From the NCBI GenBank assembly GCA_036339735.1, contig JAYZAL010000077.1:49810-113809 (forward strand): a stretch of 64,000 bases of DNA. Direction: 5' to 3'. Made by a program: the position numbers and the translations under genes. Shown piece by piece: positions 1 to 6,234 of the stretch. Below the pieces are notes generated by a model that saw only the letters and a program-made list of their open reading frames with translations, had not been told where the DNA came from and made no database searches. The DNA comes from Candidatus Poribacteria bacterium (GTDB lineage Bacteria; Poribacteria; WGA-4E; UBA9662). Positions within the stretch are counted from its first letter, which is position 1. Every line of letters starts with the position of its first letter.

Positions 1-1
1 C

Positions 2-538
2 CATTCAATCGCACATCATGATTTGGGATATATTTATCGTGTGCGAGGTAAATATGAACAGGTAACTGCTAAACTTCGACAGGTTATTGATATTCCCCCT
101 GACGAAGAAAAGATATTGAATTTCGGAAGTGATTTGCGTCCGTTTGCATACATCAATCTAGGAGATATTTATAGACAACAGGGTAAAGTGGAAGAGGCAC
201 TGGCAAAATTCCAACAGGAAATGCAGGTTGAGATTGCCCTTAGTATCGCACCTACATGGGTGAACGAGTGCCAGGGAATGATTTACCTTACACAAGGCAA
301 ACTAAATGATGCTGGCACCGAATTCCGACAGGTAATTGAGCTCGACCCCAACAATACAATGGTACATTACAACCTTGCCTGTGTGTATTCCCTGAAAAAT
401 GAACTCAAACTGGCAGTAGAATCCCTGCAGAAAGCAATTAAGTTGGATAAAAGTTATATTGAGTTGTCTAAAAAAGACCCTGATTTAGACAACATTCGAC
501 AAACACCAGAATTCCAGAAGTTAATCGATTCCTACTAA
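2..538 (+). CDS. Tetratricopeptide-repeat protein, 5'-truncated by the window edge
   Basis: TPR motifs (AYINLGDIYRQQGKVEEA, VHYNLACVYSLKNELKLAVESLQKAIKLD, DPDLDNIR). The frame is open back to base 2. Confidence 0.85.
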   Translation, partial: HSIAHHDLGYIYRVRGKYEQVTAKLRQVIDIPPDEEKILNFGSDLRPFAYINLGDIYRQQGKVEEALAKFQQEMQVEIALSIAPTWVNECQGMIYLTQGKLNDAGTEFRQVIELDPNNTMVHYNLACVYSLKNELKLAVESLQKAIKLDKSYIELSKKDPDLDNIRQTPEFQKLIDSY

Positions 539-1225
539 CTACTCTAGTTTCTTACTCTGTCGGAAAAAATCAGTGATCTGTGCACAATGGTATGCTTTCC
601 CTTTAGAGTTGGTATATCCCATCTTAAATAAAATGTTAGAGATCTCTTGGTTGGTATAAGCACCTGATTTGAGTTCTTTAACATGTTTTATCAGTTCGGG
701 TTTGGTTTCCAGTACCGATTTACGGCCACCGGCTTTACCCCGACCTTTCAAGTCAACAATACCTTTTTGCTGGTTTTGGGTTTTTCTCTGTAACTTAGCT
801 AACTGGTTCCCTAGTTTTTCGTACTCAACCACCACCTCAAACAATTGGTCGTCATCAGGGGTAGAATGTTGGTAACTCAGACTATCAAAGGTTCCAGTAA
901 TCGAAACCAGTGGCATATTCAGTTTCTCCATCATTTTCATTATTAACCTCTGTTGGAACCGACTGGTTTGACCGATACTGAGAAAGAAGTTAGGTTCGAC
1001 AATGATGCAATTAACTCCCCGTTCGACACCTTTAGTGAATGCCAACCGGTCCTCATATCTTCGAAATGCCCAATTCCCATCTCCTGGTCTCCAATCATAG
1101 AACCATTCACCTAGAACCTCGATTTGGTTCTGGTTAATGAAATGTTGGATAGGATCGGGGTTGTGATCGTCAGGGTTTCCTCGGACTAATACTACTACTT
1201 TTTTACCTGTTATATCTTGGTTCAT
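539..1225 (-). CDS. Divergent serine-recombinase (resolvase-like) family protein, probably lacking the catalytic Ser
   Basis: N-terminal KKVVVLVRG sits where YxRVS is expected. C-terminal GRGKAGGRKS...PELIKHVKELK...EISNILFKMGYTNSKGKAY resembles recombinase DNA-binding tails. It is paralogous to the pseudogene at 3069-3538. Confidence 0.6.
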   Translation of the reverse strand: MNQDITGKKVVVLVRGNPDDHNPDPIQHFINQNQIEVLGEWFYDWRPGDGNWAFRRYEDRLAFTKGVERGVNCIIVEPNFFLSIGQTSRFQQRLIMKMMEKLNMPLVSITGTFDSLSYQHSTPDDDQLFEVVVEYEKLGNQLAKLQRKTQNQQKGIVDLKGRGKAGGRKSVLETKPELIKHVKELKSGAYTNQEISNILFKMGYTNSKGKAYHCAQITDFFRQSKKLE

Positions 1226-1233
1226 ATTGTTTC
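1199..1233. repeat. Direct repeat A, copy 1 (5' end of the recombinase-like gene)
   Basis: 28/35 identical to 1596-1630 by hand alignment. Confidence 0.75.
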
Positions 1234-1252
1234 ATAATATTGCAGTACGTTA

Positions 1253-1579
1253 TCAGAAGCAACATCGGCATTCACCTTCCTTACCGTCAATTATTGAAAC
1301 TCCATCACAATAAGTTTTTTCACCCAACATAGAAGTCTTTACCCCAGTTTCATTATAAAACGAGATTTTGCAACCTTTATTATTATCAATATGTATTTCA
1401 CCTCTCTTTTTCCCATTTTCATCTTCGATTATGATTTCTCGACAGGTTATCTTTCCAAACTTCGTATCTATTGACCCCTTATCTGCATTAGCATCAGTAA
1501 CCAAAACCGAGTTCAACACCATTCCAGAAATAACTAGTAATCCCCCGATAACCAGAAAGACTAAATCTCTAATTTTCAT
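1253..1579 (-). CDS. Hypothetical exported/membrane-anchored protein, paralog of 1813-2319
   Basis: Likely start MKIRDLVFLVIGGLLVISGMVLNS at 1579. Shares the N-terminus and FGxITCxxIII motif with 1813-2319. Confidence 0.7.
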   Translation of the reverse strand: MKIRDLVFLVIGGLLVISGMVLNSVLVTDANADKGSIDTKFGKITCREIIIEDENGKKRGEIHIDNNKGCKISFYNETGVKTSMLGEKTYCDGVSIIDGKEGECRCCF

Positions 1580-1595
1580 TTCTTGCGTCTCATTC

Positions 1596-1630
1596 CTTTT
1601 TACCAACTATGTATTGGTTCATATTATTTC
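1596..1630. repeat. Direct repeat A, copy 2 (minus strand reads MNQYIVGKKE* versus MNQDITGKKV)
   Basis: 28/35 identical to 1199-1233. Confidence 0.75.
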
Positions 1631-1812
1631 CTACTTTCCACTTTTTTCGTTTTTTTATGAAAGTAACTGAAATAAATAACTCTATAGAAAAGGGTTGCTA
1701 AAACAGTAAAAATCATTCCAACTACAATTTCTATTCCGTGATTACTAAAAATTTCAGATGTTACTATTTGACCATATCCTTGGGCTAACCACCGTTTTTG
1801 TTTATTGATACC

Positions 1813-2319
1813 TTAATTTTCTTTGATCAAATCCGTAGGAGGAATTACTGAATCCGAAGTGTCTTCATTATTTAGGATTCTTTCTATTACACCACTACCA
1901 TCAAGACCCACTGTCAGACTAATAGCATTTTCTCCTGTTTTGTTAATACAATCAATACCTCCACCATTTTCGTTTATATACATTCTTACTTTTCTTTTAT
2001 CAGTTTTAGGTTTTGAGTCGAGAACAAGCAGCATTTCATTGTTTTCTCCCTGATTGCTACCTAAATATACAACTTGTTGACTTAGGTCATCACCAAACAT
2101 TGTCAGCATACTACTATTCCCACTTTCATCTAATCCAAAATATGCTTTTCTCTCATTTTCACCTTGAATTATAATTGCCTTACAAGTAATGACCCCGAAG
2201 TTCGCATCCTCTAAACCCACTTGTGCAACAGCATTAGTAACCAAAGAGTTTAAAACTATCCCTAGAACTACCAACACAGCACCAAATGACATATATAAAA
2301 TCTTGTCTCTAAGTTTCAT
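1813..2319 (-). CDS. Hypothetical exported protein, paralog of 1253-1579
   Basis: AAGGAG RBS, signal-like N-terminus MKLRDKILYMSFGAVLVVLGIVLNSLVTNAVAQ, FGVITCKAIII motif, Gly-rich beta-strand repeats. Confidence 0.75.
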   Translation of the reverse strand: MKLRDKILYMSFGAVLVVLGIVLNSLVTNAVAQVGLEDANFGVITCKAIIIQGENERKAYFGLDESGNSSMLTMFGDDLSQQVVYLGSNQGENNEMLLVLDSKPKTDKRKVRMYINENGGGIDCINKTGENAISLTVGLDGSGVIERILNNEDTSDSVIPPTDLIKEN

Positions 2320-2329
2320 TTCTAACTCC

Positions 2330-2363
2330 TTATTGTTTCAACATATCACCGATCGAGGGTGTA
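2330..2363. repeat. Direct repeat B, copy 1 (3' end of the recombinase gene; minus strand reads SIGDMLKQ*)
   Basis: attgtttcaacatatcaccgatcgagggtgta, 28/32 identical to copy 3. Confidence 0.85.
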
Positions 2364-2383
2364 TTGTTTGATTCTAACTTTTC

Positions 2384-2830
2384 TACATGTATTTACTCTG
2401 ATAACTAACAACATTAGCCTTGCTGGAAGTTACTTGACCTGTATCCGCATCAAATCCGGGTAGAAAACCTGTTACTGTCTAACGTTCTTTTTTGTCTACT
2501 CGCAGTATCAGTGCACCAGTAGTTCCAATGCCCACCTTCTCACGAGAAATATCGGTAAACATTCGATTGATACCATCATAAATCGGTTCTGATCTCCTTC
2601 TTTGACCATCTTCACCACAATAATAAATTAGAACAAAATACATTAGTCTTACTGATGTTCCTTTATAATATTCCCGACCTTCTTCTATTAAGATAATCTT
2701 ACCGTTTATATATTTCTTTTCACCTTTGGAAAGCAACTTTTTGTTCAAAAGGGATAACAAACGACCCCAAATTAACTTTAAACCCAAATAAAGGAACAAT
2801 TAATTGTTTTACGACTTCAAATAATCTCAT
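2384..2830 (-). pseudogene. Frameshifted hypothetical gene filling the interval between repeats B1 and B2
   Basis: GGAGG RBS and ATG at 2830 (MRLFEVVKQLIVPLFG...) stop early. Coding seems to continue in the 2479-2799 ORF frame, then in a third frame (FSTGFDADTGQVTSSKANVVSYQSKYM*). Confidence 0.5.
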
Positions 2831-2846
2831 CAACCCTCCATAGACA

Positions 2847-2880
2847 TTATTGCTTCACCATATCACTAATCGATTGTTTG
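2847..2880. repeat. Direct repeat B, copy 2 (minus strand reads QSISDMVKQ*)
   Basis: attgcttcaccatatcactaatcgattgtttg, 28/32 identical to copy 3. Confidence 0.85.
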
Positions 2881-3072
2881 TTGCTGAGTTGTTTCTTCTT
2901 CAGCATTGTCCCAGAATTTTCTCTTCACCACGAGAAACATTATTGAACCAATAAATGAAATAACAAATATTATCAAACAGATTCGGATAAGTCTCTTGCG
3001 TTTCTCTTTTCTGATAAAACCAAAAAACAGTAGAATCAGACAAATCAGAAGAGGAATTATCAGTTTTATCAT
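2866..3072 (-). CDS. Small two-TM membrane protein
   Basis: 68 aa, two hydrophobic helices with a basic loop. The ATG overlaps the recombinase stop (ATGA) and its stop lies inside repeat B2. Confidence 0.6.
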   Translation of the reverse strand: MIKLIIPLLICLILLFFGFIRKEKRKRLIRICLIIFVISFIGSIMFLVVKRKFWDNAEEETTQQQTID

Positions 3073-3102
3073 TGTTTCACCATATCACTGATCGATTGTG
3101 TA
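3069..3102. repeat. Direct repeat B, copy 3 (actual 3' end of the recombinase pseudogene)
   Basis: attgtttcaccatatcactgatcgattgtgta; the minus strand encodes TQSISDMVKQ*. Confidence 0.85.
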
Positions 3103-3538
3103 CTATATGGGTTGCCACGTTCGTTGAGGTAACCCATATCTGATAAATGTTTGGAGGTCTGACGCAAACTCATCCGTCTTTTGGTTTTCCAGTTCCGTTT
3201 TCGTAACCTCTTGACCACAACCTCACTAATTCTGGTTGCAGTTCCTTGTTCAATTTCCGACCTTCGCATTTACCCTCATCTTTCAGGGTAACATGGTTGC
3301 GTGTTGATTCTGTTTCTTCTTTCTTTCCCTACTTGACCGACAAGTTAAAAACAATTTCTTCTCTCTGGTATTCTGAAATGGCAGACAGGATTTGCCGGTT
3401 CCGTTAAGAGGTCTGATTATCTTCAAACCTACCATCAGTTACTGAAATCAGAGTAAAACCATCTTGTTTTAACCTTCGATATCCAAGTTCTAACTCAAAT
3501 GAATTAGGACTTAACCGAGAAATGCTTTCAAAACGCAG
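3069..3538 (-). pseudogene. Serine recombinase (resolvase/Pin-like) pseudogene, 5'-truncated, with stops and frameshifts
   Basis: Hand translation across frames: FESISRLSPNSFELELGYRRLKQDGFTLISVTDG...S*RNRQILSAISEYQREEIVFNL / VTLKDEGKCEGRK / KRLRKRNWKTKRRMSLRQTSKHLSDMGYLNERGNPYSTQSISDMVKQ*. Confidence 0.8.
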
Positions 3539-3872
3539 TATAAGCCCAATATACAATTGAGTTATTACGTAGATTACGTAGTGTTTTTAAATTGCACATG
3601 TAGAAAATATGTAGAAAGTAGAGAAGAGATGATTTTGAATGAAGTTTAAGACACTATTGCAGACACGGTAAGAATAAGTTAGTATTAGCATACCGATGTA
3701 AAAAACCAGACAGTTACTGGAAAAAATACATCAAAAAAGGTTCGGTGTAAAGTCGTATTCTTCTAGAAAAAACTCTTGCTCAACTAACGAGACTTGGGTA
3801 GAGTCTGATTTGGTTGGATGAGTTGAGAACTACACTAATAATTAATTATCAATTCGATATGAGGGTAGACGA

Positions 3873-4103
3873 ATGAATCTAAGGATCGAATACTGTACAG
3901 CTTGAAATTATTTGCCACGCGCCGTCAGTTTGGCGGACAAATTACTTGGCCATTATAAAACACAAATAGCTTCTCTTACACTGGTTCCTGGGGGTGGTGG
4001 TTGCTTTGAGGTTTCACGTGATAGTGAAATTTTATACTCGAAACTTTCTACCAAGGAATTCCCCAGCCTGACTCAAATTACCGACGCTCTTGGTAGTTCT
4101 TAG
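3873..4103 (+). CDS. SelW/SelT/SelH-like (Rdx family) selenoprotein, Sec at TGA 3903-3905
   Basis: GAGGG RBS and ATG at 3873 give MNLRIEYCTAU-NYLPRAVSLADKLL...GGGGCFEV...LYSKLSTKEFP, the Rdx signature with CxxU. A hairpin follows the TGA. Confidence 0.9.
3910..3942 (+). promoter_or_regulatory. Putative bacterial SECIS element
   Basis: Outer stem ATTTG/CAAAT, apical stem CGCCG/TGGCG, G-containing loop TCAGTT about 20 nt after the in-frame TGA. Confidence 0.7.
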
Positions 4104-4123
4104 TTTGTCTTTTGACAAACTTC

Positions 4124-5296
4124 CTATTCGAATGCGGCAGGTTCAACTACCTGTCGCATATCCCAGATTAGGATCTGTCCATTGGTTGTTCCAGTCGCCA
4201 AATAAAACAAATCATCTTGCTGACTAAATCTGAGAGAAAATGAACAGTAGAGGTCGAACAAGCCTAATTTTCGTGTAGATCCAAATCGTCGAAACGTTTT
4301 TTCTTCCATCGACCAGACGTAAATCTTGTCTGAAGTCTGACACAAGAAAAAAGCTTTGTTCGGGCCAAAAGACAGATTCCCACCTCGGCTAGAAACTTGG
4401 TTTTTAATTGGTGATACTTTTGATAAATCCCAACTTAATATGGATTGCTCTGCTCCAGAAGCGATCAGATAATTATCCGCTAATGATATTGAACCAATCT
4501 TCTCTTGGCCAGCCAATAACGTTTTCTCTAATTGTCCATTAGCTAAGCTCCAAAATCGGACAGTACCATCCCAAGAACCAGAGACCAACTGCTCTCCATT
4601 TTGAAAAAAATCTAGTGCGGTTACATTATCGGTATGCCCTCGAAAAGTATAGACTAATTTTCCCGTAATAATGTTCCAAAGAAAGATATTTCCATTTAGG
4701 GTAGCAATAGCTAGTAAAATAGGTTGATTAGGACAGAAAGCGAGAGTGGTTACCCACTCTCCCCGAGGTGAAGTTGTAAAAAAATCATCTTCATCATCCT
4801 CAAAATCTGTCTCTTTGTCGTCCGTCGATGGTTCAAAAGCAACTAAAGTACGTTCTATAATCCCGCTCTGTGGGTCTAAAATTTGAACTTGGCCATTGTA
4901 AGTACCATAAGCTACAGCTGCAGAATCAGGGCTCGCTACGACGGCAGTTATTAAATCTTCATTATTATCTTGAGTTGACCAACTAACTGTCCATTCCGAA
5001 TTATTTATGGAGCCAGGTGGTAGAGGGTTATCTATATCATTTTGGCTAACATTTCCTTCTTCCCAAAGACTAATTTGGTACCCCGTTGCAATTAACAAAT
5101 AAGCGCAGTCGTGTGAAAATGCTAAATCCGTTATCGGTGTACCGCTCGGAATATTCAAAATTTGTACGGGATCAGATGGAAGTTGGGGGAAATTAGTTTC
5201 AGCAACCACTCTCGTGGGTAAATAGCTGATAGCAAGATAAACCATTACATAATAGAATAAATTCAACAGCTGAAGACACTTAGTTTTTTCCGTCAT
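4124..5296 (-). CDS. WD40-repeat beta-propeller protein (start could be 5245)
   Basis: GHTDNVTALDFFQNGEQLVSGSWDGTVRFWS and further WD repeats; hydrophobic N-terminus. Confidence 0.85.
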   Translation of the reverse strand: MTEKTKCLQLLNLFYYVMVYLAISYLPTRVVAETNFPQLPSDPVQILNIPSGTPITDLAFSHDCAYLLIATGYQISLWEEGNVSQNDIDNPLPPGSINNSEWTVSWSTQDNNEDLITAVVASPDSAAVAYGTYNGQVQILDPQSGIIERTLVAFEPSTDDKETDFEDDEDDFFTTSPRGEWVTTLAFCPNQPILLAIATLNGNIFLWNIITGKLVYTFRGHTDNVTALDFFQNGEQLVSGSWDGTVRFWSLANGQLEKTLLAGQEKIGSISLADNYLIASGAEQSILSWDLSKVSPIKNQVSSRGGNLSFGPNKAFFLCQTSDKIYVWSMEEKTFRRFGSTRKLGLFDLYCSFSLRFSQQDDLFYLATGTTNGQILIWDMRQVVEPAAFE

Positions 5297-6158
5297 TGAC
5301 TTTTTTTGATGTCTGTTCGGCTACAATAATTCGGATACGATATTCGTTAGCCAATTGAACCAGTTCTGATGGTCGAATTAGCAAGACGCGTTTGGCTTCA
5401 ACAGCCAACACCTTTGCTCCTGATGTTTTCATGATTTCTAATGTTTGTCGTCCAATAGTTGGAGTATCTATCCGAAAATCGTGGTTTGTGGCCGCAGTTT
5501 TGATTACTGTGAATCCCTTACCTGCTAAATTACCAGCCCGAATAATAGCAGAGTCTGTTCCTTCGATTGCTTCAACAGCTAATACCATCCTATTTTTTAT
5601 TACTACTGTTTGACCGATATCTAAATCAGCTATTGACCGAGCAAGGGACAAACCATAGGTAATATCTAACCATTCTAATTGAGTCGGTTGTCTTTTTGTC
5701 AAAACACCAGCTGTTGGCAAAAAATCATCTAGATATTGTATTTGAGGTAGTACTCGAATACCTTCTGCTTCAAAATGATTGAGAACACTAGCCAAAATTG
5801 CTTGATCTCCACCGTGCCGGCTGCGAGCGAGAATTTTCAAAGCTGTCGTATCAAAGTGTAGTGGTTTCAATAATCTTTTTTTTTCTACTTTGCCGATAAT
5901 TGAAATTTCTTTTACATTTCGCTTTTGAAATGTTTTTGTGACTTTTTCGACTTGACCTACTCCAAGAGGGAAAACAGAGATTGTTGTAGGCAACCTCTGT
6001 TGTGCTAAGCGCGCTGAAGATTTAGTGATGGGAATGAACACAACGGGTCGTTCTGGAAAGTGTTTGAGTACTGATTCAACCAATAAAAAAGGGAGTTCAC
6101 CATCCCCAGCAACAATACCGAAAGGACTATTCGTTGGTTGATGGCATTGAGTGGCCAT
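5280..6158 (-). CDS. lpxI: UDP-2,3-diacylglucosamine diphosphatase LpxI
   Basis: GIVAGDGELP, DIGQTVV, AVEAIEGTD, DFRIDTPTIG motifs; lies directly after lpxA. Confidence 0.9.
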   Translation of the reverse strand: MATQCHQPTNSPFGIVAGDGELPFLLVESVLKHFPERPVVFIPITKSSARLAQQRLPTTISVFPLGVGQVEKVTKTFQKRNVKEISIIGKVEKKRLLKPLHFDTTALKILARSRHGGDQAILASVLNHFEAEGIRVLPQIQYLDDFLPTAGVLTKRQPTQLEWLDITYGLSLARSIADLDIGQTVVIKNRMVLAVEAIEGTDSAIIRAGNLAGKGFTVIKTAATNHDFRIDTPTIGRQTLEIMKTSGAKVLAVEAKRVLLIRPSELVQLANEYRIRIIVAEQTSKKVNDGKN

Positions 6159-6234
6159 GGCAGCTAACTGTCCAGAATCAACCCGATTTCTTACACAAAA
6201 CTTTCACTGTTCTGACAAACAATTAAAAACAAAA

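Follow-up and report, generated by a model that had tools for sequence, protein, structure and literature searches.

The best-known systems that capture single genes serially at one site are integrons, in which a tyrosine recombinase acts on folded, imperfectly palindromic attC sites. Known resolvases and invertases work on symmetric res- or hix-type sites, where they resolve or invert, and they are not known to stack genes. The 64,000-nucleotide stretch of a Candidatus Poribacteria genome analysed here (the window; contig JAYZAL010000077.1) carries, at 539-3556, a compact block of small genes lying between two resolvase-like genes, and an initial annotation had proposed that this block may be a cassette-capture array driven by a small serine recombinase, with the 3' end of the recombinase gene itself as the attachment site. 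The nearest serine-recombinase precedent is the SCC and ECC elements (staphylococcal and enterococcal cassette chromosomes). A report on these elements describes CcrAB serine recombinases that integrate them into the 3' region of rlmH, where the gene end is kept and flanking direct repeats of approximately 50 bp are the att sites; more than one attR site was present in 16 of 32 ECCs, a feature they share with complex SCC elements (PMC6222049). A search of the literature available as full text, which is a weak negative, returned no description of a serine-recombinase cassette array of the present kind.

We lean, if only slightly, towards reading the block as a fossil accretion array, left in the chromosome when a mobile module of phage-like character became fixed there and decayed. 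The plan of such a module, in which an active small serine recombinase (rec231) is followed by a handful of small, variable cargo genes and then by a catalytically dead resolvase-like paralogue (rec228), exists with an intact rec231 in a relative. Within the clade of the window, short duplicates of the joint between the rec231 stop and the rec228 start lie between the cargo units, units a and b being bounded by the last 30-39 nt of rec231 and unit e/f by the first ~27-40 nt of rec228. The comparison covered 24 sources, namely the window, the syntenic contig of a sister species (G001:C269) and 22 metagenome loci anchored on rec228. The features of the array, all of which lie on the minus strand and run 5' to 3' from 3556 down to 539, are the following (ORF, open reading frame):

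3069-3556, minus strand: rec231 pseudogene (small serine recombinase), delimited by tblastn with the intact homologue P0058
3069-3100, minus strand: repeat copy A, the last rec231 codons, QSISDMVKQ and TGA (repeat search and reading of the sequence)
2866-3072, minus strand: cargo gene a, 68 amino acids (ORF list)
2849-2880, minus strand: repeat copy B, with stop TAA (repeat search)
2386-2799, minus strand: cargo gene b, homologue of a 138-amino-acid protein, interrupted by TAG (tblastn with an ORF of locus L037)
2332-2370, minus strand: repeat copy C, reading TNTPSIGDMLKQ and TAA (repeat search)
1813-2319, minus strand: cargo gene c, 168 amino acids (ORF list)
between 1813 and 1633, minus strand: spacer of 180 nt from gene c to remnant D (sequence)
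1597-1633, minus strand: remnant D, a copy of the rec228 5' end (repeat family D2)
1253-1579, minus strand: cargo gene e, 108 amino acids from the ATG at 1579, a 117-amino-acid ORF being listed from a TTG at 1606 (ORF list)
1226-1246, minus strand: possible degenerate fourth repeat copy, 3' part (hand count, 15/21)
539-1225, minus strand: rec228, intact 228-amino-acid resolvase-like gene (ORF list)

The direct repeats of the recombinase 3' end that bound the small genes, as first proposed, are real. A repeat search placed three copies (2332-2370, 2849-2887 and 3071-3109) in one family (D1), and a 29-nt consensus allowing up to three mismatches matched 3071-3099 (no mismatches) and 2849-2877 (two mismatches), while 100 shuffles of the window gave no match. 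Compared over 32 nt, copy B differs from copy A at four positions and thereby has the 28/32 identity originally given for both copies, whereas copy C has five mismatches (27/32), its similarity running on to 39 nt. Read in the rec231 frame, the copies encode QSISDMVKQ-TGA (A), QSISDMVKQ-TAA (B) and PSIGDMLKQ-TAA (C), so that the stop codon is kept in all three, as had been noted, and the in-codon changes of copy B relative to copy A are all synonymous. As the initial annotation described, each interval holds one tightly fitted, co-oriented gene (a, of 68 amino acids, from A to B; b, a 106-amino-acid ORF, from B to C), and the 168-amino-acid gene c starts 13 nt past the last copy, its Shine-Dalgarno sequence and ATG following copy C.

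The 3' edge of the repeat lies exactly after the stop codon in eight junction types. Copy A is of the resident type, identical at 32/32 positions to the single copy of locus L038, and copy B differs from it at both ends, which argues that the A/B pair did not result from a crossover inside the repeat; any crossover would have fallen at the repeat edge, or else copy B would be the end of another gene copy. The repeat showed no dyad symmetry above chance, since 59% of 2000 shuffles reached its best inverted match (7/12). In the genome of the window, a 19-nt core with three mismatches allowed gave three off-locus matches, compared with approximately 1.1 expected from base composition; because of this expectation and of flanks at chance level (7/40, 7/40 and 13/40 identical to the repeat flanks over 40 nt), these three were taken as chance matches. 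No repeat was found outside the array locus in this genome (G000), nor in five other genomes of the family (G001, G002, G003, G005 and G006) except at the G001 locus, and the exact degenerate repeat pattern gave 0 matches in viral contigs. Arrays with more than one copy do occur elsewhere, with two copies each in G001 and L037 compared to three in the window, and the internal rec231 remnants are short (30 and 39 nt) rather than extended, degenerate recombinase copies. Across the 24 sources an extra copy is found only after genes a and b, and the one that follows b is shared as an orthologue by the window, L037 and G001, which together point to two repeat-duplicating events and one duplication of the rec228 start.

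This last duplication, like gene e, a paralogue of c, goes beyond the initial annotation. Remnant D (1597-1633) comprises the ribosome-binding region and the first 9 codons of rec228 (MNQYIVGKK), running into a stop before gene e (81% over 37 nt in family D2; 7/9 by tblastn), and it precedes the last cargo gene in L036, L037, L047 and L054 as well. Attached to it is a stub matching the final bases of the rec231-end repeat together with the ribosome-binding region or common leader that follows them (families D2 and D3). The three duplications are all pieces of the rec231-stop/rec228-start joint, extending from -30 to 0, from -39 to 0 and from approximately -12 to +27. A further stretch directly before the rec228 ATG (1226-1246) may be a degenerate repeat copy or merely the rec228 ribosome-binding region. 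The last cargo gene of G001 and of the L037-type arrays terminates in ...VKQ-TAA or ...IKQ-TAA on a GGTAAAACAATAA-like motif abutting the rec228 start: in G001 the stop (...KQ-TAA, the final repeat bases) overlaps the rec228 ATG (TAATG), and in the L037-type arrays the same end motif abuts a mutated rec228 start (ATT for ATG). That cargo genes end on the final bases of the repeat at the rec228 start suggests an ancestral operon in which the rec231 stop would have abutted the start of rec228.

Differences between the arrays of related strains, which the initial annotation had put forward as a check, were found, with breakpoints at the repeats. One protein panel applied to all 24 sources, together with blastn against the window, showed that the sources covering the interval between rec231 and rec228 hold at least seven different cargo sets (R, rec231-end repeat; D, remnant D):

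window: R-a-R-b-R-c-D-e
L035, L038, L040 and L042 (~90% nucleotide identity to the window): R-c-e157-e, with remnant D between c and e157 by blastn
G001: R-b-R-f-like
L037: R-b-R-d-D-f
L047: R-d-D-f
L036 and L054: d-D-f
L049: R-c-like
L044, L045 and L055: c-like
L041: g
L046: inverted c-like gene

The repeats, or else the 5' ends that the paralogous cargo genes share over ~100 nt, are where the differences begin and end. Wherever a comparison is possible, the cargo genes are collinear. The sole inversion among the loci is in L046, where a c-like gene (155-676) is oriented opposite to rec228. In the 24 metagenome runs, examined as assembled contigs, unitigs break at 1227/1228, 2873 and 3071 in four runs and near 1587-1603 in two or three, and in runs X1 and X3 gene a stands by itself on a unitig of 199 nt (2873-3071); no circle was seen in these contigs. 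Run X3 also contained one contig joint from 1228 to 2426 (side 30), and run X17 one in-register hybrid repeat joint from 3094 to 2364 with 8 other letters; both could be variant chromosomal arrangements in a co-occurring strain and were counted neither for nor against excision. Assemblies of sister species likewise break at or inside the block, at the end of G002:C24 (which matches window 3512-6198) and in the 2.8-kb G001:C269, consistent with strain-level heterogeneity at the locus in the source samples.

The cargo, judged by its predicted products, consists of small secreted or membrane-anchored proteins. Gene a encodes a predicted membrane protein with sub-threshold Pfam matches to membrane families only; its ATG overlaps the rec231 stop (ATGA), its own stop lies inside copy B, and it was found in no other locus among the 24 sources. 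Gene b is what is left after an in-frame TAG (2479-2481) cuts a 138-amino-acid gene, of which the L037 ORF is a homologue (tblastn, residues 3-137, 79%), and it matched no Pfam family. Gene c has the N-terminal signal/anchor MKLRDKILYMSFGAVLVVLGIVLNS, which gene e shares, and c, e157, e, d, f and g are all paralogues with this common N-terminus, conserved over ~100 nt at the 5' end, and differing C-terminal parts. Among the C-terminal parts in L037 are a BamE-like domain, which exceeds its cut-off at 24.8 bits, and a DUF4177-like one, which at 21.2 bits stays below its cut-off of 25 bits. Paralogues of c without the repeat are found in G003, G005 and G000:C40, and the ESM Atlas clusters nearest to the 168-amino-acid cargo family, as a lead only, had no Pfam family. 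The idea that the 68- and 138-amino-acid genes are diverged copies of c or e was rejected, as neither shares similarity with the c/e family. A scan for promoters and terminators gave 6 promoter-like sites, compared to 11.9 expected, and no terminator-like site inside the array, the latter being compatible with co-transcription.

The rec231 gene of the window lacks ~78 N-terminal residues, including the catalytic serine, and contains in-frame stops and a frameshift. With P0058 as query, tblastn aligned residues 79-183 and 183-231 only, at 74-78% identity across the retained part, and both the nucleophile serine (R-x-S) and the D/S-R-x-x-R motif are missing from the window copy. An unbroken orthologue (L044:1008-1430) matched the Pfam family Resolvase (PF00239) at 23.7 bits against a cut-off of 23.3, over profile positions 87-144 only, a match restricted to the C-terminal third of the catalytic domain, while the E-helix and C-terminal helix-turn-helix region of rec231 are homologous to members of PF00239. 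Judging by these alignments, the pseudogene is a genuine serine recombinase relic. The loss is shared by the clade, as the catalytic N-terminus is missing at 11/11 loci. Among the 12 rec231-matching sources, 11 lack at least residues 1-57 and only L051 is complete; in L044, L047 and L049 the contig continues upstream of rec231, so the truncation is not an assembly edge. In L044 (1008-1991) the recombinase relic, without its last codons, is fused in frame to a c-like cargo gene to give a 327-amino-acid ORF.

Intact relatives exist. The 231-amino-acid homologues from metagenomes have the RTSS nucleophile motif and SRxSRD in 10/10 cases, a long E-helix and a C-terminal helix-turn-helix, and P0058 ends in SISDMVKQ. 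Genes similar to rec231 were found on 34 viral contigs, 27-38% identical over most of their length, and one viral match was 60% identical in the C-terminal part only. In a 47.7-kb viral contig (L094, 5455-6273), the C-terminal DNA-binding part of rec231 (60%, residues 142-231) is fused to an unrelated N-terminal domain in a 272-amino-acid protein, next to two DNA methyltransferase-like genes, so that by sequence comparison the rec231 DNA-binding module appears to move between proteins. An order-level search matched 5/159 genomes at E<=1e-10 and a phylum-level search 3/176 at E<=1e-30, all of these matches falling in the family of the window. One intact copy was present in these genomes (G003:C249, 46% identical); it is followed by an unrelated 274-amino-acid gene, and no array was apparent there in the ORF list, no repeat search having been made.

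The relative that shows the complete module plan is L051, in which an intact rec231 (residues 1-231, 66% identical to P0058), preceded by a DUF5906 primase-helicase-like gene, is followed by four small co-oriented genes and then a rec228 homologue. In a check of whether intact recombinases are followed by arrays bounded by the end repeat, no such repeat was seen across the whole L051 interval, nor in the 2-2.3 kb downstream of rec231 in L070 and L071, where the rec231 frame is open to the contig start. L051 does have a 16-nt inverted repeat (6483-6498/6531-6546, 94% complementary, 32 nt apart) that begins 9 nt past the rec231 stop and is a candidate for the real recombination site of the enzyme, or for a terminator. 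L070 and L071 are 97% identical until 52 nt past the rec231 stop and unrelated thereafter, the former carrying a sulfotransferase-TPR protein and the latter a superinfection-immunity and SHOCT protein and a TET-associated glycosyltransferase. A 25-codon rec231 remnant in L037 has a homologue of Siphovirus Gp157 as its neighbour. To judge from their predicted products, the neighbours of intact or open rec231 genes are of phage or satellite type. These neighbours, the viral contigs with rec231 relatives and a third resolvase-like paralogue next to a primase-like gene led us to read the block as a stranded piece of a mobile module.

The second recombinase-like gene, held in the initial annotation to close the block, is indeed homologous to the first (tblastn, 26% over 137 residues, E 4e-5) and its model may be resolvase-like, but its product lacks the nucleophile serine. 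No Pfam match was obtained at E<=0.1, and weak matches in the C-terminal half were to a DNA invertase (phrog_125, E 0.004) and to YneB resolvase-like proteins (E 0.029). The AlphaFold2 model (mean pLDDT, the per-residue model confidence, 87.8) has a beta-alpha core, a long helix and a C-terminal helix-turn-helix, and the top Foldseek matches were the catalytic domains of a serine integrase, IS607 TnpA and TP901-1 (E 3e-3 to 1e-2, TM 0.3-0.58), intermixed with unrelated alpha/beta folds. The nucleophile column reads K in 17, N in 7 and E in 7 sequences, with serine in 0/31, and the active-site arginines are gone, the SRxSR positions being replaced (IGQ...). Because both are absent, we infer that rec228 is a DNA-binding protein rather than a recombinase. 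The gene itself starts with ATT for ATG in L036, L037, L047 and L054 and gives split high-scoring pairs in 8 further loci, some perhaps owing to assembly errors. Scans anchored on rec228 found 0 relatives in the genome-contig collection and 0 in the viral contigs, and the nearest ESM Atlas clusters, again a lead only, are mostly viral. A second resolvase-like gene paired with a rec231 relative was seen in 0/40 other loci (34 viral and 6 genomic, with flanks up to 6 kb).

The third resolvase-like paralogue (G000:C19, L002 1492-2217, minus strand) encodes 241 amino acids and lacks the nucleophile serine by alignment. Its neighbours are an oxidoreductase-like gene of the host on one side and, on the other, a primase-like gene that has a zinc-finger motif. 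Its weak NCBIfam match (E 0.0034, 16 bits against a cut-off of 900) was the only CcrB signal obtained, and the gene may mark the edge of another integrated element.

Under the fossil reading, the short duplicates would be recombination scars left by additions of cargo at the rec231-stop/rec228-start joint, made while a working rec231-type enzyme, or short-homology integration of the Campbell type, was available. Since then, rec231 would have died in the whole clade and rec228 would be dying in many strains, and the present differences between strains would have come about through deletion or exchange, by ordinary recombination between the scars or between the signal-peptide-coding 5' ends that paralogous cargo genes share over ~100 nt, and by replacement of the interval as a whole via its conserved flanks. 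Several observations weigh against this account. All internal remnants are short (30, 39 and ~27-40 nt) and the 3' edge of the repeat is nucleotide-precise, which a fixed-site mechanism predicts and random deletion in tandem modules does not. Intact rec231 relatives with the same end peptide exist (P0058) and could act in trans. Finally, the closest relatives (L035, L038, L040 and L042) are without a and b, while more distant strains have b, so that a purely vertical decay would need precise losses at the repeats. As to how the scars were made, the short, similar-sized remnants and the precise 3' edge favour insertion at a short site over random deletion in tandem modules. The possible origins can be ranked tentatively: capture at a specific site by a rec231 that was once active comes first, integration of the Campbell type through ~30 nt of homology second, and decay of tandem modules last. 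Past site-specific capture is to be regarded as possible.

A rival explanation takes the 30-nt recombinase end as an attachment site at which a rec231-type enzyme, supplied in trans in this clade, captures and excises single-gene cassettes, with rec228 perhaps acting as an accessory DNA-binding partner; we regard it as unlikely, though it is a serious contender. It accounts for the nucleotide-precise repeat boundary in the eight junction types, for the tight fit of a and b between repeats and for the mapping of their presence or absence between strains to these repeats. A resident copy A next to a foreign copy B would fit a crossover at the 3' edge, the catalytic motifs of the intact homologues are complete, and the hybrid joint of run X17 is in register. 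On the other hand, the repeat lacks the dyad symmetry of resolvase and invertase crossover sites, the local enzyme is dead throughout the clade, the site is found on only two cassette types, and cargo order is collinear. The initial interpretation is supported in part. The third duplication, moreover, uses another piece of the joint, the rec228 5' end, and a single fixed crossover site fits less well with duplicates of unequal extent and with the make-up of remnant D. The complete rec231 of L051 is accompanied by no end repeat in its cargo, L070 and L071 diverge 52 nt after the stop rather than at it, and the repeat was found nowhere else in the six family genomes or the viral contigs. The repeat after b is also about as conserved as the cassette adjoining it (27/32 between the window and L037 by hand count, compared to 81.5%). 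Taken more broadly, a working or once-working serine-recombinase capture system appears doubtful. More doubtful still is the version in which rec231 and the serine-less rec228 form a cargo-exchange module borne by phages or satellites, promoter-less single genes being captured at the recombinase's own stop, with the last 30 nt as one arm of an asymmetric site at whose 3' edge the crossover falls; such a module would be to serine recombinases what the integron is to tyrosine recombinases, and the window would hold a stranded array.

Two further explanations dispense with a site. Complete rec231-cargo-rec228 modules might have accreted in tandem, with later deletions that spared little more than the ends of the recombinase genes inside. 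Remnant D, in which a rec231-end stub adjoins the opening 9 codons of a rec228-type gene, speaks for such a history, as do the exclusively synonymous changes of copy B, which would suit the end of another once-functional gene, and the longer, 25-codon remnant that L037 keeps beside unrelated phage-like genes. This origin nevertheless seems distinctly improbable, as three independent deletions would each need to leave less than 45 nt, two rec231 remnants of <=40 nt out of ~690 would arise from random end-points with an estimated probability of ~(40/690)^2, or ~0.003, and no intermediate with a longer internal remnant was found in the 24 sources. Alternatively, the repeat could have been kept for expression, the last rec231 codons holding a ribosome-binding region (GGTGA, with an ATG 4-13 nt on) that was copied along with paralogous cargo by tandem duplication. 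The overlap of the gene a ATG with the stop of copy A, the 3' part of the repeat preceding c, e157 and e with the same GGAGTTAGAA-ATG leader, the paralogy and conserved 5' end of c, e157, e, d, f and g, and the lack of a terminator-like site in the array are all in line with this idea. However, a shows no relationship to b, nor either of them to the c/e family, which means that they cannot stem from duplication of a single unit, and the repeat reaches ~20 nt upstream of any plausible ribosome-binding site, which makes this the least credible of the explanations and, in our view, a highly improbable one. The fossil array remains the reading towards which we incline.

The block is flanked by convergent host genes, the end of a TPR gene at 538 on one side and Rdx-family and WD40 genes on the other. 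The Rdx-family (SelW-like) gene at 3873-4103 (plus strand) matches Pfam PF10262 with 45 bits on the part after an in-frame TGA; read from the ATG at 3873, it gives MNLRIEYCTA*NYLPRA, and the TGA at the CxxU position makes it a candidate selenoprotein. A label search, made without any search for a selenocysteine insertion sequence (SECIS) or for selA/selB, found the SeC label absent from the aragorn output of this 92%-complete genome. Within the spacer between gene c and remnant D, 105 nt (1651-1755) are 86% identical to G003:C89:1-105, from a different genus, whose other matches to the window are 65-84% identical. This stretch overlaps a 30-amino-acid hydrophobic ORF (1624-1716, minus strand), has no Rfam match, and may encode a small membrane peptide that escaped annotation or else be a non-coding element under conservation. 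Over positions 1-6000, Rfam gave no match at E<=1, and no tyrosine recombinase was present among the ORFs, as judged from the ORF list only.

The evidence does not show a working, self-driven, integron-like system. If such a system did operate, a mini-cassette array of a 231-amino-acid resolvase-type enzyme, bracketed by its dead paralogue, would extend gene stacking to a new enzyme class and to marine phage-like elements, and its compact site could be put to use where genes are to be stacked by engineering. If it is no more than a fossil, the locus still illustrates cleanly, in nature, that short duplications of gene ends, together with conserved segments coding for signal peptides, can make a small islet a hotspot of variation in gene content among co-occurring marine strains.

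Compared with the SCC and ECC elements, the locus shares direct repeats that duplicate the 3' end of a target gene, with several copies per locus. The target differs, being the host gene rlmH in the former and the recombinase's own end here, as do the enzymes, the large CcrA and CcrB in contrast to the 231-amino-acid resolvase/invertase-type and 228-amino-acid proteins. The SCC and ECC elements are 21-78 kb long and have att repeats of ~50 bp with inverted repeats, whereas the present array, known from sequence alone, consists of single genes of 0.2-0.7 kb and repeats without dyad symmetry (PMC6222049). As to the small serine recombinases of PF00239, the pairing of rec231 with a serine-less paralogue, such that the two bracket variable cargo, was seen in none of the 40 other loci compared above. 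With respect to integrons, the recombinase relic is of the serine type, with no tyrosine IntI beside the array, and the repeat is a piece of coding sequence without symmetry that is found on two units only; two of the three integron features examined, the tyrosine recombinase and the dyad symmetry of attC, are thus lacking, while the third, whole-cassette variation, is present. The likeness that remains is that of serial, co-oriented and tightly packed single-gene units, variable in content between strains and lying at one site next to a recombinase gene.

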